64,000 nt of DNA from Candidatus Syntropharchaeum sp. (GCA_026134025.1 JAOQII010000003.1:16166-80165), one strand, 5' to 3'; positions 10,066-62,575 are shown, numbered from the stretch's first letter. The notes: generated by a model from the letters alone, not told the origin. Numbers and translations: made by a program.

Positions 10066-11250
10066 GTGCAAATGTACCTTGAGAAGGGCGAGGAACAAAT
10101 TTTAGCTGGTGAAAAAGGCAGAACTCTCCAGAAGATGATGGAGATCCTCGTAACACTTGGAAAGATCTATGATGCAGAGTACCTGATCCCGATAAAAAGT
10201 GTGCAGATTGCAGGTGTCTCGTACAAGACGATCGGGGATGCGGGGCTTGAATGGATCGAAGATATCGATGCACAGGTTGTTGTCCCATCGATACTCAATC
10301 CAATGGGCATGGATCGGGAAAGATGGCGAGAGATGGGCATAAGCGAGGATTTCTACAGGAAGCAGATCGAGATACTCGATGCGTACAGCAGGATGGGGAT
10401 TAGATTGGAATGCACCTGCACCCCTTACTACCTTGAAGATGGTAGGCCCTGCCTGGGCGACCATCTTGCATGGTCTGAGTCCTCTGCAATCTCGTTTGCA
10501 AATTCGGTGATTGGAGCAAGGACCAATCGAGAGAGTGGGATATCTGCCCTTGCATCGGCACTGCTCGGAAAGACGCCATATTATGGATATCACCTCGATG
10601 AGAACCGGGTTCCAGCAATTGGGATCGAGGTGCCTTTCACACTAACAGGCTCTGACTTCGGGGCGCTTGGATATGTGATTGGAAAGGTTATCGGTGATTG
10701 TGTCCCAATCTTTGAGTTTGCACCCTCGATAAAACCATCAGATGATAACCTCAAGAGCCTTGGTGCTGCACTTGCTGCGAGTGGTGCGGTTGCCCTGTAT
10801 CATGTGAAGGGTAGAACACCCGAAGCAGATCGTTTTGAGATGCCAGAAGAGACGATCATGGTTGAGGAAGGCGAGATTCGTTCTGTCTATGACGGATCGT
10901 CTGAACCCGATCTTGTAGCACTTGGGTGCCCTCATCTCTCGATAGAAGAGCTTGAGCTTGCAGCAGAACTCCTTCGTGGTAGAAAGGTCAAACGAGAGCT
11001 GTGGTTGTGTGTATCGAGGTATCTTAAAGGTAAGCGAGCAGATCTTGTCGGAATGATAGAATCATCCGGGGCAAAAGTCATCTCTGATACCTGCATGATT
11101 GTATCTCCTGCATGTGACAGGTTTGATTGCATTATGACCGACTCTGGGAAGGCGTTGAACTACATACCCACGATGTGTCAGGCAGAAGCGGTCTTTGGGA
11201 GTTTCAGAGATTGTATCGAGGTGGCACTTGGTGAGGCAAGGGACTGTTGA
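10066..11250 (+). CDS. Aconitase X family protein (DUF521), large catalytic subunit; putative phosphomevalonate dehydratase of the archaeal mevalonate pathway
   Basis: About 394 aa with a conserved Cys-rich aconitase-X core (LECTCTPYY, CMIVSPACDRFDC); no adjacent small subunit. Confidence 0.6.
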   Translation: MQMYLEKGEEQILAGEKGRTLQKMMEILVTLGKIYDAEYLIPIKSVQIAGVSYKTIGDAGLEWIEDIDAQVVVPSILNPMGMDRERWREMGISEDFYRKQIEILDAYSRMGIRLECTCTPYYLEDGRPCLGDHLAWSESSAISFANSVIGARTNRESGISALASALLGKTPYYGYHLDENRVPAIGIEVPFTLTGSDFGALGYVIGKVIGDCVPIFEFAPSIKPSDDNLKSLGAALAASGAVALYHVKGRTPEADRFEMPEETIMVEEGEIRSVYDGSSEPDLVALGCPHLSIEELELAAELLRGRKVKRELWLCVSRYLKGKRADLVGMIESSGAKVISDTCMIVSPACDRFDCIMTDSGKALNYIPTMCQAEAVFGSFRDCIEVALGEARDC

Positions 11251-11800
11251 GGATGCGATTTCCACCCTTAAATCAGGTGGGGTCATCGTCTATCCGACAG
11301 AGACAGTCTATGGTCTTGGCGCGAGTATATACAAAAAGGAGGGTATAGAGAGGATCTATGCGATCAAAGGGAGATTATTCTCAAAACCAGTATCCATTGC
11401 TGTTTCGAGTTATGATATGATCGATGAGGTGGCCTATCTCGATGAATCGATGCGTAAGATCATCGAGAAGATCCTGCCAGGACCTGTTACAGTGCTTCTT
11501 AAGAAGAGCCCGGTTGTACCAGATCGTTTGAGTGCAGGTTCAGATCTCATCGGTATCAGATTTCCAGATCACGAAAAAGCGCTTGCGATAATCGAATCCG
11601 TGGGTCCAATCACCTCAACGAGTGCGAATATCTCGGGTAAGAAAGATCCGATTGCTCCTGAGGAGGTTGAGATTGAAGCAGATATGATCGTATATGGTGG
11701 AAGATGCAGGATAGGAGTCTCCTCGACGGTTGTGGATCCTGTTTCAAAGAGAATCCTGCGAAAAGGAGCGGGGTATGAGAGGGTTGCTGATGTATTATAA
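11234..11800 (+). CDS. tsaC: L-threonylcarbamoyladenylate synthase (YrdC/Sua5-type, short form)
   Basis: VIVYPTETVYGLGA signature; probable GTG start at 11234 within the listed ORF 11195..11800; overlaps the acnX end. Confidence 0.75.
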   Translation, partial: RQGTVEDAISTLKSGGVIVYPTETVYGLGASIYKKEGIERIYAIKGRLFSKPVSIAVSSYDMIDEVAYLDESMRKIIEKILPGPVTVLLKKSPVVPDRLSAGSDLIGIRFPDHEKALAIIESVGPITSTSANISGKKDPIAPEEVEIEADMIVYGGRCRIGVSSTVVDPVSKRILRKGAGYERVADVL

Positions 11801-12865: not shown

Positions 12866-12986
12866 CCCGCCTTAACTCAGTCTGGTTAGAGTGCGCGGCT
12901 GTAGTAAGATCATGTAACCGCGTGTTACACATTACCGCGACTTTGCAGATACCGCGATGCCCCCGGTTCGAATCCGGGAGGCGGGA
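12866..12986 (+). tRNA. tRNA-Tyr (anticodon GTA) with a 46-nt intron at the canonical 37/38 position (12905..12950)
   Basis: Folded by eye. Acceptor stem CCCGCCT/AGGCGGG with discriminator A. D arm ACTC-AGTCTGGTTA-GAGT. Anticodon stem CGCGG/CCGCG with loop CTGTAG(intron)A. T arm CCCGG-TTCGAAT-CCGGG. No encoded CCA. Confidence 0.85.
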
Positions 12987-12988
12987 TT

Positions 12989-13207
12989 TTAACTTATATT
13001 AGCTTCCTCGATCTCGGTTGCGATCTTGAGGTTGCTCAGATAATCATCGATCGCTTCGATCGCAGAACCTATCCTATCAAATGTAAAGGTGACTGAAATC
13101 TCATGGTCATCGGTTTTTCCTACAATATTTGGTGTATTATCAGGTTCAAGTGATTTTACAGCCGTGATGAACGCTTTATCGAGTATCAACCTCGCTTTTA
13201 GCTTCAT
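12989..13207 (-). CDS. pcc1: KEOPS complex subunit Pcc1-like small protein
   Basis: 72 aa; C-terminal helix AIEAIDDYLSNLKIATEI resembles the conserved Pcc1 helix; 3 nt downstream of the radical SAM gene on the same strand. Confidence 0.45.
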   Translation of the reverse strand: MKLKARLILDKAFITAVKSLEPDNTPNIVGKTDDHEISVTFTFDRIGSAIEAIDDYLSNLKIATEIEEANIS

Positions 13208-13210
13208 TCC

Positions 13211-14710
13211 TCATTCACCAGTATCTATCGCAAACTTCTTCTCAACCTTCTCGCGATGCAGTGTGTTGTAGGTGCAGAACGGGATCACCCTACCATCAGG
13301 GATAGCATAATGTATACCACAGCGCCTGACACGCTCAAGATCGATGTTATAAAGATCCTGGAAGTGCATTGCACCAAGAAAGAGCGTGTTGTCATGAAAC
13401 TCAGCCAGCGCCCTTGTATTTCCCTCTCTGATGACGTTTATAATGAGCTTTGCAACGTCCACCTTGATAGGCGAGCGTTCCTGATCTATAAAGTGTGGAA
13501 TTTTCGTGATAAGATTCTTAACCAGCTTCAGGCGATCACCAAAACCATGAATGGACGTTATTTCTTCCTCAAGTAACTCCATCAGCCCTTCGACATCGAT
13601 GAAGCGCGTGATCGGGATGTATTTACCGTCCTCGATAAAGACGTAGGTTGCGACCCCGCAGTGAGGATGCACCGTAAACTCAACCTGTGGTGTCTCTCTC
13701 CACCGCTCAATTATACGTGAGATCGGGAGAACAAAGGGAACCGGATAGAAATCGTCCTTCGCGATCGCACCAGCGGTCTGCTCCTCGACAAGCCGCATGA
13801 AGTCAGGTATTGTGATCCGCTTTGCATGAACTTCATTGATATCTGTTCTTCCAGCAAATGATATCGGCTGGACGTTTATTCCTCTTATAACATCATGGTT
13901 TTCTGCGGCAAAGTCGAGCATCGGACCGAGCTGATCATCGTTCAAGCCTTTTGCAAGCGTCTGAACGAGAACAACACTTGTGATCCGCGTCTTACGGCAG
14001 TTCTCGATCACCTTTAGCTTCAGAGGGAGTGCGTTATACCCACGAATTTCCTCATATATCTCCTCTTTGAGCCCATCGAACTGGAAATAAAGCGTGTTTA
14101 ATCCTGCATCGCGAATCTTTCTGCAGAACTCAAGATCCTTGGCGAGTTTGACACCGTTTGTTGCAACCTGAATCTGCGAGAAACCCATATCTTTTGCCAT
14201 GCGGATGATCTCTGGTAGCTCCTTTCTCACCGTCGGCTCCCCTCCTGCAAACTGGACAGCCGTACATCCAACCGGCTCCTCTTCCCGCAGCACTTTAAGC
14301 ATCTTCTCGATCTCTTCCATCGTGGGTTCAACGACATAGCCTGCCGCAGCAGCATTTGCGAAGCAGATCGGGCATCGCTGGTTACAGCGGTTTGTAAGAT
14401 CGATATTCGCAAGTATTGTGCCTGTTAGGTGTTCGGCACATAACCCGCAGTCATAGGGACATCCTTCACGCTCGCCAACCATCGGGTTTGATACACCCCT
14501 TCCATCCCGGCCAAAGCGCTTGAACTTATAAAATGAGGCAGGATCTGACCAGTAGACATCTTCAAAGTAGCCGTGTTCTGGACAGGTCTTTTTCATGAGG
14601 ATCTTTCCACCCTCCTCAAGAACGTCCGCTTCGATCACCATCTTACAGACCGGACAAATCGACTTTGTTTTGATACTATCACCAACGCTTCTCCTTCTAT
14701 TTCTACCCAA
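13211..14710 (-). CDS. Radical SAM protein, tetraether lipid synthase (Tes)-like
   Basis: Radical SAM CNQRCPIC (CxxxCxxC). N-terminal Cys cluster (CPVC...CPEHG...CPYDCGLC) could form a rubredoxin-like site. Further C-terminal Cys (CGVATY, CGIHY, FCTYN) could ligate auxiliary clusters. 499 aa. Confidence 0.5.
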   Translation of the reverse strand: MGRNRRRSVGDSIKTKSICPVCKMVIEADVLEEGGKILMKKTCPEHGYFEDVYWSDPASFYKFKRFGRDGRGVSNPMVGEREGCPYDCGLCAEHLTGTILANIDLTNRCNQRCPICFANAAAAGYVVEPTMEEIEKMLKVLREEEPVGCTAVQFAGGEPTVRKELPEIIRMAKDMGFSQIQVATNGVKLAKDLEFCRKIRDAGLNTLYFQFDGLKEEIYEEIRGYNALPLKLKVIENCRKTRITSVVLVQTLAKGLNDDQLGPMLDFAAENHDVIRGINVQPISFAGRTDINEVHAKRITIPDFMRLVEEQTAGAIAKDDFYPVPFVLPISRIIERWRETPQVEFTVHPHCGVATYVFIEDGKYIPITRFIDVEGLMELLEEEITSIHGFGDRLKLVKNLITKIPHFIDQERSPIKVDVAKLIINVIREGNTRALAEFHDNTLFLGAMHFQDLYNIDLERVRRCGIHYAIPDGRVIPFCTYNTLHREKVEKKFAIDTGE

Positions 14711-14794
14711 CCTTAATGGAAGAGGGGAAGATATATATATGTGTCGTTTGATAGGTATAGGTAGGAAGTAAAATTTGCATAGATAGGAACTTAA
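14711..14794. promoter_or_regulatory. Divergent promoter region with ATAGGT/ATAGATAGG direct repeats and atatatat TATA-like elements
   Basis: gATAGGTATAGGTAGGaagtaaaatttgcATAGATAGGaac lies between the radical SAM gene (minus strand) and the HTH-GT2-UbiA operon (plus strand). Confidence 0.35.
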
Positions 14795-15157
14795 ATGGTT
14801 GAGAAAGAGAATGTCCTGGATATTGTAAATAGGCTCTTTGAAAGGATTGGTTTTCCTGATACCGAGTCGAGGATCTACACGCTTCTTCTTGAGCGTAAGC
14901 GGCCATTCTCGATAAGAGAGATCTCCGAGGAACTTGGCCTATCGGTGAGAACAGTGAGGGAGCGGGTTAGAGCGTTATGTAAGAAGCAGCTTCTGAAGCG
15001 GGAGGTTGTGGAGAAGAAGTGGCTTGAGTATAGATACATGGCAAAATCGCCAAAAGAAGTCTGGGCAATAATCAAAAACAAGCTGGAGAATGCGATAGAC
15101 GAGGTTGAGAAGGAGTTCGATCTTGATCAAGATAGCGCGAAGAGGGATGTAAAATGA
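14795..15157 (+). CDS. Winged-helix transcriptional regulator (TrmB/ArsR-like)
   Basis: FSIREISEELGLSVRTVRERVRALCKKQLL helix-turn-helix; first gene of an ATGA-overlapped operon. Confidence 0.6.
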   Translation: MVEKENVLDIVNRLFERIGFPDTESRIYTLLLERKRPFSIREISEELGLSVRTVRERVRALCKKQLLKREVVEKKWLEYRYMAKSPKEVWAIIKNKLENAIDEVEKEFDLDQDSAKRDVK

Positions 15158-16482
15158 GAAAGATCGATTATGCCATGGTTTTTAGTGTTGACAGGATTGC
15201 TTATGGTGTTTCCACGCTAATACTACTCTCATCGGGTGTTCTTGCAGGGAAGATGGTCTATGACATCGAGCTATCGAGTGTCGGTTTAAGTTCAAACTAC
15301 AGCTACGTGGGGGCTGTTATTGTTGCTCTATCACTATACTTTGTTTACAGCTTCTTTAAAGTGGAAGACCCGCCAGCGATTGAGGCGTATGAGCCTGTAA
15401 CGATCGTTGTTCCAGCATATAATGAAGAAGATGTTCTTGAAGGATGTATCGAACATCTTCTAAAAATTGACTATCCAGAAGGTCTTTTCGAGATTTTGAT
15501 CGTGTATGAGCCTGATTGCAGCGACAGGACAGGTGAGATAGCTCTCGATCTTGCCAGTAAGTATGAGAATGTCTATGCGATCAAGAATCATGACAAATAT
15601 CAGGGTACAAAAGCAGGGGCACTCAACCTTGCGCGAAAATATGCAAGGGGCACGATCATCGGCGTTTATGATGCTGATCATCATGTTGAGAAGGACGTTG
15701 TCAGGCGGGCAGTCGCATGGCTTGGTTCTGATGATAAGATCGGTGCGGTGGATGGAAGCTGTTCTGTGCGGAATAGAGGTTATGATCTTGGTACGAGGTT
15801 TATAGGGGGGGAGATCGCGACAGGAATCGATCTTATAAGATTCATCGAAGATCGAGTCGTTGATAGCCACTTCATATATGGCTCAAACTTTTTCATACGA
15901 GCCAAGGTACTTGATGCGGTCGGTGGCTTTGATGATCGTGTTGTTGGCGAGGATAAAGAGATGGGTATGCGACTCATCGATCACGGCTACAGGATAAAAC
16001 TTGATCTCGGTATGCGAAGCTGGGAGCAGGTTACAACAGGATTCAGGTCCTGGTGGAATCAGCGTAAGCGATGGGATCGGGGGAGATTCCAGATACTGAG
16101 CAAGTACCTTCCGAATATACTCGATAGAGAGATAAAGATAAGTAATATAAGGCGTGCATATCCGTTTTTATTTGTTCAGGTATTATCCTATCCGCTCGGT
16201 CTTGTAGGAGTTGGATTTATTGTATTCACGCTGTACGTGGCATTCACAAATCCACTTCTATTCATCTACTTCTTCATGCCGTTTGTCCTGCTCTTTCTTG
16301 GAAGGAGCATTCAGGATATGAGATCTGGGATGGCTGACTGGAAAGATCTCTTAATCTCTGTTATAATGCCATTTTACATCTATTCACGGGCTTTCATTGG
16401 ATTTAAAGCGATGTGGGAAGAGATATTTGATATTGAACCACGCTGGGTAAAAGTGAGACGCACAAAGGACGATGTTCTATGA
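15154..16482 (+). CDS. Membrane-embedded processive family-2 glycosyltransferase (cellulose/chitin-synthase-like)
   Basis: VVPAYNEE, DAD (YDADHH), and a QxxRW motif (QRKRWDRG), flanked by N- and C-terminal TM helices. Confidence 0.75.
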   Translation: MRKIDYAMVFSVDRIAYGVSTLILLSSGVLAGKMVYDIELSSVGLSSNYSYVGAVIVALSLYFVYSFFKVEDPPAIEAYEPVTIVVPAYNEEDVLEGCIEHLLKIDYPEGLFEILIVYEPDCSDRTGEIALDLASKYENVYAIKNHDKYQGTKAGALNLARKYARGTIIGVYDADHHVEKDVVRRAVAWLGSDDKIGAVDGSCSVRNRGYDLGTRFIGGEIATGIDLIRFIEDRVVDSHFIYGSNFFIRAKVLDAVGGFDDRVVGEDKEMGMRLIDHGYRIKLDLGMRSWEQVTTGFRSWWNQRKRWDRGRFQILSKYLPNILDREIKISNIRRAYPFLFVQVLSYPLGLVGVGFIVFTLYVAFTNPLLFIYFFMPFVLLFLGRSIQDMRSGMADWKDLLISVIMPFYIYSRAFIGFKAMWEEIFDIEPRWVKVRRTKDDVL

Positions 16483-17324
16483 GTGTAGAAGTATTAACAC
16501 GTGTTAAAGGGCATTATCAGAACCTGCGGATCATAGACTGGCGAGCTTATGTGGCGATGGTACTCTTCGGGTATCTTCTTGCAGGGGGATTGGGCATTTT
16601 TTACCATCAAACAACACTTTATCTTATGATCACGACATCTTGCTACCTTGCATTCGCGTTCTCTGTGAACAACTGTTTTGACCTTAAAGAAGATATAAAA
16701 TCAGGTAAGACGAACAACCCGATTGCGGGCGGTCTTATCAGTTTTAAGGAGGCGCTGATGATCTCCATGGGCACGGCAATTCTCGGTGGGGTTTTATCAT
16801 ACATCTGGTTCGGTGGGGTACCATCTCTTCTATTCATGCTCCTCCTCCTTCTCGCATTTGCATACTCAGTACCGCCTTTGAGGTTCAAGTCACGTCCACC
16901 ATTTGATACTTTATCGCATGGTTTATTCTTCGGTGCGCTACTCTTTCTATTTGGTTTCGCAGTTATCAGTGAACCGTCTCCCACGATACTCCTCATCGCG
17001 CTATCGATCTTCGTCTACTCGATCACAATTGAACTAAAGAACCACATAAAGGATTATTACTCAGATCTTAGCGCAGGAACGATTACAACTGCGTGCTGGA
17101 TTGGAATTGATAAAACAAGAAAATTATTCAGAGTTCTCGTATATCTGCACTTTTTCATATTGGTTGCACTTCTATACACATTCTCAAGGCCTATTCTTTT
17201 AATTATACTTTTAATAATGCTTCTAATTCTTATAATATCCCCTAAAATAGATGAACGGATTCCTTCAACCGATGTAGCATCCCTTTTTGCCTATTTATCG
17301 CTCCTACCTCTTTATATTTTCTAA
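16479..17324 (+). CDS. UbiA-family prenyltransferase (DGGGP-synthase-like paralog)
   Basis: Multi-TM protein with an Asp-rich motif-1 variant, NNCFDLKEDIKSGK; overlaps the GT2 stop. Confidence 0.65.
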   Translation: MSVEVLTRVKGHYQNLRIIDWRAYVAMVLFGYLLAGGLGIFYHQTTLYLMITTSCYLAFAFSVNNCFDLKEDIKSGKTNNPIAGGLISFKEALMISMGTAILGGVLSYIWFGGVPSLLFMLLLLLAFAYSVPPLRFKSRPPFDTLSHGLFFGALLFLFGFAVISEPSPTILLIALSIFVYSITIELKNHIKDYYSDLSAGTITTACWIGIDKTRKLFRVLVYLHFFILVALLYTFSRPILLIILLIMLLILIISPKIDERIPSTDVASLFAYLSLLPLYIF

Positions 17325-17411: not shown

Positions 17412-18773
17412 GTGTGTGGTATGAGCATGGATCTCAGAGCATTCTTAAACCCGGAGTCTGTCGCGGTTGTGGGCGCATCCCGAAATCCCAGGAGCTTTGG
17501 CTATCGCATCGTTAAAAATATGATAGATCTGGGATTTAAAGGATCAATCTATCCGATAAACCCAAAGGCAGCAAGAATCGCTGGTATCAGGGTTTACCAA
17601 TCCCTTTCCGATCTCCCAGAAATCCCTGAGCTTGTTGTTATCGCGTTACCGGGCGATCATGTGATCGATGCTCTTAAAGAATGCGAAGATGCAGGTGTCC
17701 AGAATGCGATCATAACAGCACCTGATGTTGCCGATAAACGAGAGATTACAATCTTTGCCAGAAAAGCGGGGATAAGAATACTTGGACCCAGTACAATCGG
17801 TCTTATAAACCTCAAAGATCACTTTGCAGCATCTGTTCTTCCTGTGCGAGACCTCAAGGTCAGTGGCATATCTTTCCTCGCCCAGAGTGGCGGTCTTTCA
17901 GGTGGTCTTGGCTGGTGGAGAGCTGATGGAATCGGATTTAACAAGATAATCTGTCTTGGTGATGGGTGTGATATCGACGAGATTGAAACACTAAAGGCAC
18001 TCGCTTCAGATCCCGCGACAGACGTGATCCTTGTATACCTCGATCCAAGAGAACCTGAATTCTTTAGAGAGCTTGAGAAAGTAGCCCTGAAGAAGCCTGT
18101 TGTATTCCTCGACCCCACCAAAAAAGTGGATCTTGAGGGCGTTATCGTTGTTAATAGATACTATGAGTTATTTGAGTTTGGAAAGATATTTGAGAGCGGT
18201 TTGAAGATGAATGGCAATCGAATAGGGGTTGTGAGTGTCTCTTCTGGAAGTATATCCGTTGTTCTTGAGTCGATGAAGCGAAACAACCTCGTACTTGCAA
18301 ACCTCTGCGAGGGTACTGTTAATCGGCTTCGAGAGGTTGCAAACCCATGGATAACTTCATTCAATCCGATGGATATCTGGCCACCTATCGAGTTATCTGG
18401 AGACGACGTTGGTCGCAGATACACGGAGTCTGCTGCGGCTTTGATGGATGATCCAGGGGTCGATGGGGTATTTGTAATACTTGAACTGATGGAGGAGATT
18501 GAGTTCGACCTTGAAGATATGTTTAAACCAATCGTAGAAAAACACCCGGATAAACCATTGATTCTTATATGCTGGCAGATCGAAGCTCCTGTACTTGAGA
18601 GGGTGAGACGTGAGCTTCTCGCGCTTGACATACCCTTCTACATAGATGAACTTGAACGACCCGCCGAGGTTTATGCCGCTGGATTGAAATACAGGAGGTG
18701 GAACGAAGAAATCATCTCGCAACCGCGATCTTTATCCCTGAAACCTCCAGTAGATCAACCCGTTCTCCCTTAG
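17412..18773 (+). CDS. Acyl-CoA synthetase (NDP-forming) alpha-subunit-like protein, apparently lacking the phospho-histidine loop
   Basis: CoA-binding Rossmann segment VAVVGASRNPRSFGY plus ligase-CoA domains; no HTGSM-type catalytic His motif, unlike the acdA at 50624. Confidence 0.65.
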   Translation: MCGMSMDLRAFLNPESVAVVGASRNPRSFGYRIVKNMIDLGFKGSIYPINPKAARIAGIRVYQSLSDLPEIPELVVIALPGDHVIDALKECEDAGVQNAIITAPDVADKREITIFARKAGIRILGPSTIGLINLKDHFAASVLPVRDLKVSGISFLAQSGGLSGGLGWWRADGIGFNKIICLGDGCDIDEIETLKALASDPATDVILVYLDPREPEFFRELEKVALKKPVVFLDPTKKVDLEGVIVVNRYYELFEFGKIFESGLKMNGNRIGVVSVSSGSISVVLESMKRNNLVLANLCEGTVNRLREVANPWITSFNPMDIWPPIELSGDDVGRRYTESAAALMDDPGVDGVFVILELMEEIEFDLEDMFKPIVEKHPDKPLILICWQIEAPVLERVRRELLALDIPFYIDELERPAEVYAAGLKYRRWNEEIISQPRSLSLKPPVDQPVLP

Positions 18774-53432: not shown

Positions 53433-54305
53433 TTGAATCCATGTGAATGGGAAGAGAAGCAGTTAATCGAGAATCGACTGTATCGCATTCTTGATGAGAT
53501 CGATGACTGGCCCCACAACAGGGAAATCATGCAGTATATAATTCGTTCAGGTGGTAAACGAACCCGTTCAATCATCGTTCTCCTCACATGCGAGCTTACT
53601 GGTGGCGATGCACGTGATGCGGTCGATGCCGCGGTCGCGGTTGAGTTCTCGCATATCGCATCACTCATTCATGATGACATCCTCGATGCAGGCAAGATGC
53701 GGCATGGAATCCCAACGATTTACGAGAAGTACGGGCTTGATCAGGCGATATTGATCGGTGATTTTCTTATATCAAACTCAATCTTTCTTGGATCAACGTA
53801 TGACGAGGCTGTGATAAAAGATCTTGCTCTGGCTACGATGAATATGGCAGAAGGAGAGATCCTCGATACAGCAAGCAGAACCGATCCATATTTCGACGAG
53901 GATAAATACTATGACCTGATAGAAAAAAAGACAGCCTCGCTCTTCTCAGCTGCTGCCTCTATCGGTGGCAGAATCGGGGGTGCATCAGAGAAGGAGGTTT
54001 TAATGCTTAAGGAGATTGGCACAAAGGCAGGAATCGCATACCAGATCCTTGATGACCTTCTTGAATTTTTAAACCTTGAGATAGACAAGCACTCAAGCGA
54101 TGCATCCGTTACACTACCCCTAATTCTAAACAAAACGATGGAAGAGGAAAAGGTTAAATTTGAATGTATCGAGCGGATCGGGACGCTTGTTGGTGGCTGC
54201 ATGGATCTTATAAACGCGTTTCCAGAATCACCTGCTCGCAAACGCCTGATTCAGGTGATTGAGTACATGACCCTCGAACAGCTCAAAGATGAATGCTATC
54301 TCTGA
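53433..54305 (+). CDS. idsA: Short-chain trans-prenyl diphosphate synthase (GGPP synthase-like)
   Basis: First Asp-rich motif LIHDDILD, second motif QILDDLLEF; 290 aa. Confidence 0.8.
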   Translation: MNPCEWEEKQLIENRLYRILDEIDDWPHNREIMQYIIRSGGKRTRSIIVLLTCELTGGDARDAVDAAVAVEFSHIASLIHDDILDAGKMRHGIPTIYEKYGLDQAILIGDFLISNSIFLGSTYDEAVIKDLALATMNMAEGEILDTASRTDPYFDEDKYYDLIEKKTASLFSAAASIGGRIGGASEKEVLMLKEIGTKAGIAYQILDDLLEFLNLEIDKHSSDASVTLPLILNKTMEEEKVKFECIERIGTLVGGCMDLINAFPESPARKRLIQVIEYMTLEQLKDECYL

Positions 54306-60395: not shown

Positions 60396-61388
60396 ATGGA
60401 TGAACGTATAATCTCTCCTGCAAAGAAAGATGATGAGACCTGTGAGTTTGATCTCAGGCCACGCAGCCTCTCAAACTTCATTGGACAGGAGAAGGTGAAG
60501 GAACAGCTAAAGATCTTCATCGAGGCTGCAAAGGGGCGAAAAAGCGTACTTGATCATATCCTCTTCCACGGGCCACCTGGACTTGGAAAGACGACACTTG
60601 CCAGGATCATAGCTGAGGAGATGGGGGTTAATATCCTCTCAACGAGCGGTCCTATCCTTGAGAAAGCTGGTGATCTCGCCGCGATCATAACAAACCTATC
60701 CGAAGGGGATATTCTCTTCATCGATGAGATTCACAGGCTCAATACAGCGGTCGAGGAGATCCTCTATCCTGCGATGGAGGAGTTCAAACTTGATATCATA
60801 ATCGGAAAAGGACCTGGTGCTCGCTCGATAAAGCTCAACACACCCCATTTTACACTTATAGGTGCAACCACAAAGACCGGGCTTCTCTCTTCACCCTTAA
60901 GGGATAGATTTGGGGTAATATCAAGGATGGAATTTTACACGCCCCACGAGCTTCAGAGGATTGTGGAGAACGCATCAGATATGCTTGGAATCAGGATTGA
61001 ATCCGATGGCGCAGGAGAGATCGCGAAGCGCTCGAGGGGTACGCCAAGAATTGCTTTGAGGCTCTTGAGACGGGTTCGTGACTTCGCAGAGGTCAGGGGG
61101 GATGGCACCATCGATCAAAGAATTGCTGATATGGCACTCAAGATGCTCGGGGTTGATGCGGTGGGGTTTGATGAGATGGATCGGCTCATCATATCGACGA
61201 TCATCGATAAGTTTAACGGGGGTCCTGTCGGACTTGATACGATCGCATCAGCGATAGGGGAGGATTCAAACACGATTGAGGATGTCTATGAGCCCTATCT
61301 ACTCCAGCAGGGTTTCATAAACAGAACGCCACGTGGTAGAGTTGCAACCCCGATCGCGAAGGGGTGGTGGAAGGCGCATCCTGAGTGA
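60396..61388 (+). CDS. ruvB: Holliday junction branch-migration ATPase RuvB (bacterial type)
   Basis: Near-collinear match to bacterial RuvB: [66 protein letters not shown]-terminal winged helix. Confidence 0.85.
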
Positions 61389-61402: not shown

Positions 61403-62575
61403 CTAAAAACTTTTCATAAGCGAGAATAACAATCCTGCAACCTTCGCCTTTGGAAGTGAAATGAGTTCTCTGAAAAGGATTGAGGGCTTATCCATATCAC
61501 CGAAATTCTCTATCACCCTGATAATCTCGGGGTCATTGAGCGATTCGATGAGTTGATCGAGCTTACGATCATCAAGACCTGAAAACCACCTGTGGATCTT
61601 AAACCCGATTGAGAGTTCCTTTCCAATGAGTCTTCTCCACTTTTTTTCGTACTCAAGAAGGCGCATCCTGGTTGTATCACCATCCAGGACCGCTTCTGCT
61701 GCCACCCTGCCAGCGATCCTGGCGCAGACCGCACCGGTATATATCCCACCTCCTGTCGTTGGCTTAACCTGCCCTGCTGCATCTCCAACCGCTATAAAAC
61801 CATCTGAAACCGTCTTCTTAGCCATACCGATCGGTATTCCGCCGAGCACAAAATCTGTGGTTGATCCTCTAACCAAAGGATGATCGCTTATGAGCCTCTC
61901 AAGGTAACTGAGCGCAGACGCTTTAATCCCATCGCTTGCGATACCGAGACCAACACGCCCAAAACCATCTTCTGTAGGTATCATCCATCCAAAAAACCCT
62001 GGCGCAACCTTTTTACCAAGAAAAACCTCCACAAAGTCGGAATCCTCAAAATCACATCTGACCTCTGTCTGAATGGCTGGTATGATCCTGGGAAGGTTGG
62101 TGTCACCAAGATAGAGCCTTGAAATCCTTCTTTTAACTCCCTCTGCCGCAATGAGAACTCCTGCCTCGATAATCTCTCGCTCACCATTTACACGAACCTC
62201 CAGTCGCCCTTGCCCTCCTTCAACCACCTTTGCCTTGAGCAGGATCTCACATCCCGCATCAAGAGCACGTGATGCAAGTTCTCGATCAAAGATCTTCCTA
62301 TCGATGATCCATGCCTTCTCTTCATGTCCATCGATCCGCAGACGGTGGTTTGGCGAGTTTATGAACGCGCCCTGTGCAGTCCTGATCAGAAAGTCACCCC
62401 GTTTGACCTCACATGCGGATGCCGCCCGTCTGCTTATGATCCCTGCACACTGTATCGGCTCACCGATTGCGGGGTGCTCCTCGATAATAATCGTCTTTGC
62501 ACCGCTTGCTGCTGCATACTTGCCAGCGATACTACCAGCAGGTCCCCCACCTATAATCGCGACATCAACCTTCAT
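61403..62575 (-). CDS. Geranylgeranyl reductase family FAD-dependent oxidoreductase (archaeal lipid saturase-like)
   Basis: VAIIGGGPAGS FAD fold; GEPIQCAGIIS motif; about 390 aa. Confidence 0.8.
   Translation of the reverse strand: MKVDVAIIGGGPAGSIAGKYAAASGAKTIIIEEHPAIGEPIQCAGIISRRAASACEVKRGDFLIRTAQGAFINSPNHRLRIDGHEEKAWIIDRKIFDRELASRALDAGCEILLKAKVVEGGQGRLEVRVNGEREIIEAGVLIAAEGVKRRISRLYLGDTNLPRIIPAIQTEVRCDFEDSDFVEVFLGKKVAPGFFGWMIPTEDGFGRVGLGIASDGIKASALSYLERLISDHPLVRGSTTDFVLGGIPIGMAKKTVSDGFIAVGDAAGQVKPTTGGGIYTGAVCARIAGRVAAEAVLDGDTTRMRLLEYEKKWRRLIGKELSIGFKIHRWFSGLDDRKLDQLIESLNDPEIIRVIENFGDMDKPSILFRELISLPKAKVAGLLFSLMKSF

Follow-up and report, generated by a model that had tools for sequence, protein, structure and literature searches.

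A UbiA prenyltransferase and glycosyltransferase operon divergent from a tetraether lipid synthase gene in Candidatus Syntropharchaeum

Results

Gene content of the locus

We analyzed a 64,000-nucleotide stretch of DNA from Candidatus Syntropharchaeum sp. (GCA_026134025.1, JAOQII010000003.1:16166-80165), hereafter the window, in which a gene for a tetraether lipid synthase (tes), a radical S-adenosylmethionine (SAM) protein, and a small pcc1-like gene lie on the minus strand, divergent from a plus-strand operon that encodes a helix-turn-helix (HTH) regulator, a membrane glycosyltransferase of family GT2 and a prenyltransferase of the UbiA family. The open reading frames (ORFs) of the locus, with positions counted from the first nucleotide of the window and lengths in amino acids (aa), are the following:

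12989-13207, minus strand: pcc1-like ORF, 72 aa
13211-14710, minus strand: tes (radical SAM ORF), 499 aa
14711-14794: divergent intergenic region between tes and the HTH gene
14795-15157, plus strand: HTH gene, 120 aa
15154-16482, plus strand: GT2 gene, 442 aa
16479-17324, plus strand: UbiA gene, 281 aa

The coordinates of the five ORFs agree exactly with those of an initial annotation of this DNA, and the two ATGA start/stop overlaps that it reported, between the HTH and GT2 genes (15154-15157) and between the GT2 and UbiA genes (16479-16482), can both be read in the sequence. On the opposite strand, a gap of 3 nt separates the tes stop codon from the pcc1 start codon. The UbiA and GT2 proteins share 99% identity with proteins listed by NCBI for metagenome-assembled genomes of Candidatus Syntropharchaeales, a group related to archaeal butane oxidizers. 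The whole five-gene arrangement was seen again in Ca. Syntrophoarchaeum caldarius (locus L001; L numbers denote the loci of our comparison) and in a Ca. S. butanivorans-like contig (L183), and the ORF set is therefore not accidental. The initial annotation had proposed a Tes-like radical SAM protein, a Pcc1-like protein, a winged-HTH regulator, a membrane GT2 with a QxxRW motif and a UbiA-family prenyltransferase, and all five assignments are borne out by the searches reported below. The best-supported reading of the region is that it consists of two neighboring yet separable units, tes-pcc1 and HTH-GT2-UbiA.

The UbiA protein and its subfamily

By profile comparison, the UbiA protein belongs to a distinct, uncharacterized UbiA subfamily, the nearest relatives of which are AfUbiA of Archaeoglobus fulgidus and, after it, digeranylgeranylglyceryl phosphate synthase (DGGGPS). 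The protein scored 101.7 bits against the Pfam family PF01040 (cut-off 34.2) and passed none of the NCBIfam prenyltransferase models, the DGGGPS models NF009521, NF009522 and NF009512 being absent among its matches; subfamily members from Thermococcus, Archaeoglobus, Bathyarchaeota, Hadesarchaea and Patescibacteria reached 38-76 bits on the DGGGPS models (cut-offs 278-353). Two profiles were then compared, one of the subfamily, built without the Syntropharchaeales rows, and one of 119 canonical DGGGPS. The window protein scored 292.5 bits with the subfamily profile and 40.6 bits with the canonical one, whereas canonical DGGGPS scored 43-67 and 318-410 bits, respectively. Nearly all subfamily members derived from the loci described below obtained 146-354 bits on the subfamily profile. 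Among solved relatives, the subfamily profile ranked AfUbiA first (109 bits), followed by MjDGGGPS (62 bits), the chlorophyll synthase ChlG (42 bits) and, marginally, Rv3806c (22 bits).

Orthology between AfUbiA and the subfamily proteins of Archaeoglobi was considered and rejected: with ~30% identity and 115 bits on the subfamily profile (57 bits on the canonical-DGGGPS profile), compared to 146-354 bits for the members, AfUbiA represents a neighboring clade. AfUbiA binds prenyl diphosphates as donor, and the prenyl acceptor was not identified by the authors of the structure (PMC4106721).

In the alignment of 32 homologues, motif 1 of the UbiA protein (N64/D68/D72) is invariant and N188/D192/D196 are kept in at least 90% of the sequences; further invariant positions are Y129-S130, P132-P133, R135, K137, D143, S146-H147 and E185, and H189 is nearly invariant. 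The AlphaFold model (AF2; predicted local distance difference test score, pLDDT, 90.2) has a nine-helix fold that retrieved AfUbiA and MjDGGGPS at a template modeling (TM) score of ~0.7 (0.72 for MjDGGGPS), and the structural search also brought up the phosphoribosyltransferase Rv3806c (TM 0.74). In DGGGPS, motif 2 reads Yx5K, and the first Asp of motif 3 (D180 in MjDGGGPS) is needed for activity (PMC9385802). The window protein has motif 1, its motif 2 reads Y129-S-x-P-P-x-R-x-K137 (YSxPPxRxK), and N188 replaces D180. In the comparison with DGGGPS active-site residues that the initial annotation had suggested, motif 1 (NxxxDxxxD) is thus found in the window protein, whereas the Yx5K motif 2 and the motif 3 Asp are not. 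By both the NCBIfam searches and the two-profile test, the protein combines intact catalytic motifs with a position outside the canonical DGGGPS orthologues.

The GT2 and HTH proteins and the divergent intergenic region

The GT2 protein matched three Pfam GT2 families above cut-off (Glyco_trans_2_3, 95.7 bits) and remained below the NCBIfam equivalogs, of which PgaC_IcaA was the best match (111 bits, cut-off 422) and CelA gave 67 bits (cut-off 699). Residues D124, D173-A-D175, E266-D267 and Q303-R304-K-R306-W307 are invariant among 32 homologues, and these D, DxD, ED and QxxRW motifs align with those of BcsA. In the AF2 model (pLDDT 87.7), two N-terminal and about four C-terminal helices surround a GT-A domain; the top Foldseek matches of the model are BcsA, the Pyrobaculum mannosyltransferase PcManGT (6YV7) and hyaluronan synthases, and GtrB-type enzymes rank lower. 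The invariant motifs and the modeled fold support a membrane glycosyltransferase with a cellulose-synthase-like fold. The term 'processive', which the initial annotation attached to this protein, is unproven, as it derives from the fold and the motifs only, and the non-polymerizing PcManGT shares both. The closest GT2 orthologues outside Syntropharchaeia come from Archaeoglobi (42-44% identity), where they stand alone, and from Methanocella (35-37%), near a GtrA-like gene.

The HTH protein matched the Pfam TrmB family above cut-off (34.3 bits, cut-off 25.6) and fell below the NCBIfam equivalogs Lrs14 (34 bits, cut-off 90) and Sta1 (32 bits, cut-off 80). It has 120 residues and neither an effector domain nor the TrmB sugar-binding domain; among solved structures, AF2008 of A. 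fulgidus (PDB 1SFX) is its closest relative (67 bits over the whole length). In Archaeoglobi and Thermococci, UbiA genes of this subfamily have homologues of the HTH gene (50-66 bits) beside them. In loci from other Archaeoglobi, an AF2008-like HTH gene sits between the GT4 and GT2 genes, 3' of the UbiA subfamily gene, a placement that hints at the regulatory target of AF2008.

Three elements were recognized in the divergent intergenic region:

14730-14741: TATA-like palindrome
14757-14774: first copy of an 18-nt direct repeat with TAGGAA
14779-14796: second copy of the 18-nt direct repeat, extending 2 nt into the HTH start codon

The 100 nt located 5' of the HTH gene are kept in 4 of the 4 Syntrophoarchaeum genomes, including GoM_oil, where tes is missing from this position, and the conserved stretch carries a TATATATA element and, in two copies, a motif containing TAGGAA. 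Because the upstream region is kept even without tes, this putative promoter or operator would belong to the HTH-GT2-UbiA operon.

Tes and its linkage to the operon in Syntropharchaeia

The radical SAM protein is, judging by its sequence, a true Tes/GDGT-MAS orthologue, that is, already-known biology. It scored 702.8 bits against the NCBIfam Tes equivalog NF045702 (cut-off 450; residues 14-496 of 499), contains the Pfam domains Zn_ribbon_HMPTM and Radical_SAM, and matched the structure of MJ0619, the GDGT-MAS of Methanocaldococcus jannaschii (7TOL), with 574 bits and 54% identity across 478 aligned residues. When compared to the metal-ligand motifs of GDGT-MAS/Tes (PMC9433317), the window protein was found to keep all ligands of the rubredoxin-like iron and of the three [4Fe-4S] clusters: the rubredoxin-like Cx2Cx20Cx2H site (C19, C22, C43 and H46) with the spacing of MJ0619, the N-terminal auxiliary [4Fe-4S] ligands as aligned to MJ0619 (C84, C88, C91 and H94), the radical SAM motif Cx3Cx2C (C109, C113 and C116), and the C-terminal cluster (C351, C464 and C479 with the labile Met M448), all of which align with MJ0619 ligands. 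An identity of the PqqE, anaerobic sulfatase-maturating enzyme (anSME) or MoaA-like type was rejected, as those models gave at most 97 bits compared to 703 for Tes; the next non-Tes NCBIfam families (TrsS, MoaA and PqqE) were far under their own cut-offs. The family membership is directly apparent from these comparisons, and the activity of the window protein is predicted by analogy to MJ0619: Tes would join, by radical SAM chemistry, the methyl termini of two saturated phytanyl chains to yield a glycerol dialkyl glycerol tetraether (GDGT) or a macrocyclic archaeol.

The HTH-GT2-UbiA operon is kept in five of the five Syntropharchaeia genomes (the window, L001, GoM_oil (L182), L183 and L084), and tes is found beside it in three. 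The genes upstream of the operon are:

Window, L001 and L183: tes-pcc1
Ca. Syntrophoarchaeum sp. GoM_oil (L182): methylmalonyl-CoA mutase
L084 (a more distant member of Syntropharchaeia): B12-radical SAM; a 247-aa TrmB replaces the small HTH

The 501-aa radical SAM protein divergent from the L084 operon was tried as a Tes candidate and rejected; it is a B12-binding radical SAM protein of a family also seen beside the UbiA gene in Bathyarchaeota. An archaetidylinositol-phosphate synthase-like gene lies near the L084 operon. HTH-GT2-UbiA is a stable unit, and the adjacency of tes is lineage-specific. The proposal of the initial annotation, whereby the genes form a 'lipid island' co-regulated with tetraether formation, is not supported: GoM_oil and L084 lack tes at this position, and none of 79 other, metagenomic Tes loci carries the UbiA gene.

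Several features of these metagenomic Tes loci were recorded. A ~250-aa TrmB-like regulator gene is divergent from tes in 9 of the 79, and a ~188-aa CDP-archaeol synthase-like gene, recognized by sequence reading and weak phmmer matches only, is divergent in 9; the two sets cover L093, L099, L102, L104, L113, L115, L120, L132 and L151, and L097, L107-L112 and L153. In a lineage with Tes at ~40% identity, a conserved 95-aa ORF lies directly 3' of tes (12 loci).

Genomic context of the UbiA subfamily across lineages

A search of a word-indexed database yielded 37 UbiA homologues, and a pattern scan of species-representative genomes yielded 84 UbiA relatives, which span Hadesarchaea, Bathyarchaeota, Thermofilaceae, Thermoplasmata, Brockarchaeota, Asgard archaea, Thermococci and Archaeoglobi as well as Aenigmatarchaeota, Woesearchaeota, Nitrososphaerota, Altiarchaeota and Patescibacteria. 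When ORFs up to 5 kb away from the UbiA gene were clustered for 83 loci, the commonest neighbor was a GT4 glycosyltransferase gene (43/83), mostly the immediate downstream gene on the same strand, with a product related to MshA, BshA, PIG-A and MGlcDAG-synthase type enzymes. A membrane GT2 was found beside the subfamily in 14 of the 83 loci and a flippase-like LPG_synthase_TM/TIGR00374 protein in 13-14; a small HTH homologous to that of the window was present in 11 loci by clustering and in 16 by phmmer, and creatininase-family genes were present in 11. The gene orders differ among lineages:

Archaeoglobi: UbiA-GT4-HTH-GT2
Thermococci: HTH divergent from UbiA-flippase-GT4-creatininase
Many TACK lineages: UbiA-GT4
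DPANN: UbiA-GT4-GT2

The loci with creatininase (metal amidohydrolase) genes belong to Bathyarchaeota (L018, L019, L024, L037, L049 and L065) and Thermococci (L043, L048, L057, L059 and L079). These genes are sometimes arranged in tandem and sometimes occur without a GT4 gene; their product could possibly be a deacetylase for a GlcNAc-lipid.

Radical SAM genes form another recurrent group of neighbors. In two Aenigmatarchaeota loci (L047 and L067), UbiA, GT4, GT2 and Hbs-like genes follow each other on one strand; the order B12-rSAM (B12-binding radical SAM)-UbiA-GT4 is found in Bathyarchaeota (L006, L014 and L015), and both an Hbs-like and a B12-rSAM gene lie beside UbiA in L026. AhbD-like SPASM proteins with a ~120-aa N-terminal extension are encoded beside UbiA in L026, L033, L047, L067 and L083, and B12-binding radical SAM proteins in L002, L006, L014, L015, L026, L077 and L084. 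Hbs has been described as an AhbD-like enzyme with a ~100-aa N-terminal extension (Garcia et al. 2023 preprint; cf. Gms, Li et al. 2024), and the B12-binding radical SAM class includes the GDGT ring synthases (Grs) and the H-GDGT methylase (Hgm), encoded in hbs-grs-hgm clusters (Garcia et al. 2023 preprint); neither of the two studies mentions a UbiA or glycosyltransferase partner. Overall, Tes, Hbs-like or B12-rSAM genes occur within 5 kb of the UbiA subfamily in ~13 of 85 loci, in at least six lineages. Tes itself adjoins the subfamily in Syntrophoarchaeum and in one frameshifted locus of Aenigmatarchaeota (L080).

In L080 (L080:2665-8640), Tes, GT2 and UbiA are each split into two ORFs, which would be explained by frameshifts introduced during assembly or by the decay of one copy of a Tes-GT-UbiA cluster.

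In bacterial loci, the UbiA gene lies among genes for short-chain dehydrogenases/reductases (SDR), geranylgeranyl reductase (GGR), polyprenyl synthase, isopentenyl-diphosphate isomerase (IDI) and the mevalonate pathway, usually with no glycosyltransferase gene. One such locus (L060:791-6358) has the order IDI-GGR-UbiA-polyprenyl synthase-PcrB (geranylgeranylglyceryl phosphate synthase, GGGPS)-HMGR, and in three others (L032, L050 and L052) CarS-like and CDP-alcohol transferase genes are located a few kb 5'. The subfamily fills the DGGGPS slot of archaeal-type ether-lipid operons in bacteria. Judging by these gene sets, isoprenoid glycerol ethers may be produced by some bacteria of candidate phyla. 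The four loci L060, L032, L050 and L052 come from Patescibacteria and Humimicrobiaceae.

The pcc1-like gene and other genes of the window

The 72-aa ORF downstream of tes exceeded the cut-off of the NCBIfam Pcc1 model NF011470 (39 bits, cut-off 27). It matched no Pfam family at E ≤ 0.01 and no PDB sequence at E ≤ 10, which is weak negative evidence because the protein is short; its putative identity as Pcc1 is backed solely by NCBIfam. Pcc1 homologues lie directly 3' of tes in L001 (S. caldarius) and L183 (S. butanivorans-like), and phmmer found none beside tes in the 79 other metagenomic Tes loci, where the small ORFs 3' of tes belong to other families. Pcc1 is a subunit of KEOPS, which functions in N6-threonylcarbamoyladenosine (t6A) modification of tRNA. 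Most likely, pcc1 is a co-transcribed passenger of tes and encodes a tRNA-modification subunit rather than a lipid enzyme; we found no link of Pcc1 to lipids. Beyond pcc1, the following genes were identified:

12866-12986, plus strand: tRNA gene with a 49-nt intron (Rfam RF00005, 50.6 bits, E = 3.8e-10, full model)
11195-11800, plus strand: Sua5/TsaC gene, t6A pathway, 1.2 kb from pcc1
10066-11250, plus strand: AcnX-family gene (Pfam, 502 bits), directly 5' of the Sua5/TsaC gene

The tRNA gene, which was missed by ARAGORN in bacterial mode and detected by Rfam, is convergent with pcc1, lies 2 nt from its end and delimits the tes-pcc1 transcription unit on that side. The AcnX family includes the archaeal phosphomevalonate dehydratase, which would make this gene an isoprenoid-pathway candidate 3 kb from tes.

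A gene similar to the alpha subunit of ADP-forming acetyl-CoA synthetase (CoA_binding_2 and Succ_CoA_lig domains) lies 3' of the UbiA gene on the same strand in the window (17412-18773, plus strand) and in GoM_oil (L182:6929-8251); it is not at that position in S. caldarius. Farther away, the window encodes a prenyl diphosphate synthase (53433-54305, plus strand), for which the nearest model, that of the geranylfarnesyl diphosphate synthase of Methanosarcina, gave 236 bits against a cut-off of 600, and a geranylgeranyl reductase family protein (61403-62575, minus strand; TIGR02032, 210 bits, cut-off 159). An ORF at 60396-61388 (plus strand) matched the RuvB equivalog of bacteria with 511 bits (cut-off 282), which is unexpected in an archaeal genome; it may reflect horizontal transfer or a binning or assembly chimera.

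Discussion

A predicted lipid module

With moderate confidence, we interpret HTH-GT2-UbiA as a translationally coupled operon that is the local form of a widespread, uncharacterized lipid module acting in the ether-lipid or glycolipid branch. The UbiA protein would use a prenyl diphosphate, probably geranylgeranyl diphosphate (GGPP), to etherify a glycerol-based acceptor; such DGGGPS-like chemistry is suggested by the nearest relatives of the protein and by the position of the subfamily in bacterial operons. GT2 would draw on a nucleotide sugar as donor and attach at least one beta-linked hexose to the free hydroxyl of this diether or of a tetraether core, yielding a glycolipid. Such sugar addition by GT2 or GT4 is suggested by the synteny with lipid-type GT4s and the flippase-like protein. 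The small HTH protein would control the operon from the conserved TATA/TAGGAA region. The initial annotation had likewise proposed a glycolipid role for GT2 and UbiA, which fits the wide synteny of the UbiA subfamily with GT4 or GT2 and the flippase-like gene; overall, then, the gene identities of that annotation are confirmed and its glycolipid proposal agrees with the gene context, whereas the 'island' and the co-regulation with Tes are not supported. Literature searches for characterized archaeol glycosyltransferases and for Syntrophoarchaeum lipid data gave nothing usable.

The recurring closeness of the UbiA subfamily to genes for tetraether-tailoring radical SAM enzymes suggests a connection with tetraether lipids. 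Such a connection is chemically plausible given that the head-group pocket of Tes is non-specific (PMC9433317): Tes accepts lipids irrespective of the head group, so that glycolipids could be among its substrates.

Several observations weigh against this interpretation. The acceptor and the chemistry of the UbiA subfamily are predicted from genomic context, the Hbs and Grs/Hgm identities of its neighbors are assigned by protein architecture, and anaerobic archaea often carry radical SAM genes. The orthologues of GT2 in Archaeoglobi (L085) and Methanocella (L086) adjoin no UbiA gene, so GT2 can work without UbiA. The partner glycosyltransferase varies by lineage (GT4 or GT2), and bacterial loci usually have none, which weakens the idea of a single uniform pathway. 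Finally, the absence of the subfamily from the 79 other metagenomic Tes loci, and of tes from beside the GoM_oil operon, bears directly on the tetraether connection.

Alternative explanations

The alternative that survives best, although we consider it unlikely, is that tes-pcc1 and HTH-GT2-UbiA are functionally unconnected neighbors brought together by lineage-specific gene order, so that the 'lipid island' is a coincidence. The two observations just given, including the methylmalonyl-CoA mutase gene in place of tes in GoM_oil, are what this explanation predicts, and the conservation of the operon promoter region independently of tes and the co-transcription of tes with pcc1, a gene unrelated to lipids, also agree with it. 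However, the distant L084 holds, at the tes position, a B12-radical SAM gene of a neighbor family that is seen beside an Hbs-like gene in L026, and the ~13 of 85 loci with Tes, Hbs-like or B12-rSAM genes within 5 kb exceed, by informal judgement, the chance expectation for single-copy genes.

The predicted function of the UbiA protein itself can be read in another way, which we regard as improbable: UbiA would be the DGGGP synthase of the organism, possibly the only one, in a divergent isofunctional form, and GT2 an unrelated neighbor. In favor of this possibility, the bacterial members of the subfamily occupy exactly the DGGGPS place beside GGPP synthase, GGGPS (PcrB), GGR, IDI and CarS-like genes; the 64-kb window contains no other UbiA gene; and no protein named Syntrophoarchaeum, such as a canonical DGGGPS of Syntropharchaeales, occurs among the best 120 of 370 MjDGGGPS matches. 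Furthermore, Thaumarchaeota are reported to lack the canonical DGGGPS, their nearest homologue belonging to another UbiA subfamily (Coleman et al., PMC6431249), and the subfamily analyzed here includes Nitrososphaerota loci. Against it stand the scores on the DGGGPS models, far below cut-off in the members tested, with no match listed for the window protein, the preference of the window protein for the subfamily profile over the canonical one, and the deviations in motifs 2 and 3 (Asn188 at the place of D180). In addition, Thermococci and Archaeoglobi, in which the subfamily is present, are expected to have a canonical DGGGPS, and a tight, phylum-spanning coupling to glycosyltransferases is not expected of a housekeeping enzyme.

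Least probable, and by a clear step less so than the preceding alternative, is that the product of the operon is a polysaccharide, either secreted or lipid-primed, or an envelope glycan linked to polyprenyl phosphate, with no role in core lipids, GT2 being a processive synthase and UbiA making or modifying, by analogy to the mycobacterial Rv3806c/GlfT2 neighborhood, a polyprenyl carrier or primer: the full motif set and fold of BcsA/hyaluronan-synthase-type enzymes, PgaC/IcaA as best NCBIfam match, GT2 orthologues that are solitary in Archaeoglobi or near a GtrA-like gene in Methanocella, and the structural retrieval of Rv3806c agree with it, but the PgaC score is about a quarter of its cut-off, the sequence similarity to Rv3806c is marginal next to that of AfUbiA and DGGGPS, the donors of AfUbiA are prenyl diphosphates, bacterial loci embed the subfamily in isoprenoid/ether-lipid operons without a glycosyltransferase, and the recurrent neighbors are lipid-tailoring radical SAM and flippase-like genes rather than genes for export or polymer modification.

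Implications

Tes by itself adds one further orthologue in a lineage already reported as a tetraether maker; the new information lies in the divergent operon, in which known kinds of enzymes appear in a new variant. The analysis defines a coherent and phylogenetically wide UbiA subfamily, the nearest solved relative of which, AfUbiA, has been without a known substrate since 2014. The intact archaeal lipids that abound most in sediments and seeps include glycosidic diethers and GDGTs and, to our knowledge, most of the genes responsible for the glycolipid cores and head groups of these compounds have yet to be assigned. As a tentative extension of the lipid-module interpretation, to which we give rather little weight, UbiA with the almost always adjacent GT4 or GT2 and the flippase-like protein might constitute a route to archaeal neutral glycolipids, on the side of glycosyl-archaeol and glycosidic GDGT, with UbiA as a second dedicated ether-forming prenyltransferase whose diether product Tes, Hbs and Grs would convert; the same subfamily might also serve as the 'missing' DGGGPS where the canonical one is absent, and might enable some Patescibacteria to make archaeal-type ether lipids. 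The modules of Thermococcus and Archaeoglobus are genetically tractable candidates for archaeal glycolipid synthesis, and the subfamily bears on the question of whether some Patescibacteria make ether lipids.

Comparison with known systems

The window Tes shares the four-domain layout of the characterized GDGT-MAS/Tes (MJ0619, PDB 7TOL; Lloyd et al. 2022, Zeng et al. 2022) and differs from MJ0619 in nothing notable apart from the N-terminus, to which the TTG start, if used, would add ~13 residues; at the level of gene order, the window tes has pcc1 as the next downstream gene, unlike the other Tes loci examined. The hbs-grs-hgm clusters encode enzymes with architectures that match the AhbD-like and B12 radical SAM neighbors of the UbiA subfamily elsewhere, whereas the radical SAM neighbor in the window is Tes itself.

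Among prenyltransferases, AfUbiA (PDB 4TQ3-4TQ6), likewise an orphan, shares the YSxPPxRxK-type motif 2 with the window subfamily but lacks its conserved Asn in motif 3. MjDGGGPS (PDB 6M31) has in common with the window protein the nine-helix UbiA fold and motif 1; the tight linkage of the subfamily to glycosyltransferases in archaea sets it apart from DGGGPS.

The window GT2 resembles BcsA, hyaluronan synthase, PcManGT and PgaC/IcaA in an FxxGS-like acceptor motif and in the transmembrane helices that flank the catalytic domain. Unlike these enzymes, it is encoded with a prenyltransferase, and its 442 residues include no PilZ, BcsB-type or gating accessory parts. The HTH protein equals in size AF2008 (1SFX), a small archaeal winged-helix protein without an assigned function; the 247-aa TrmB found instead of it in L084 carries the sugar-binding domain of TrmB, which the window protein lacks.

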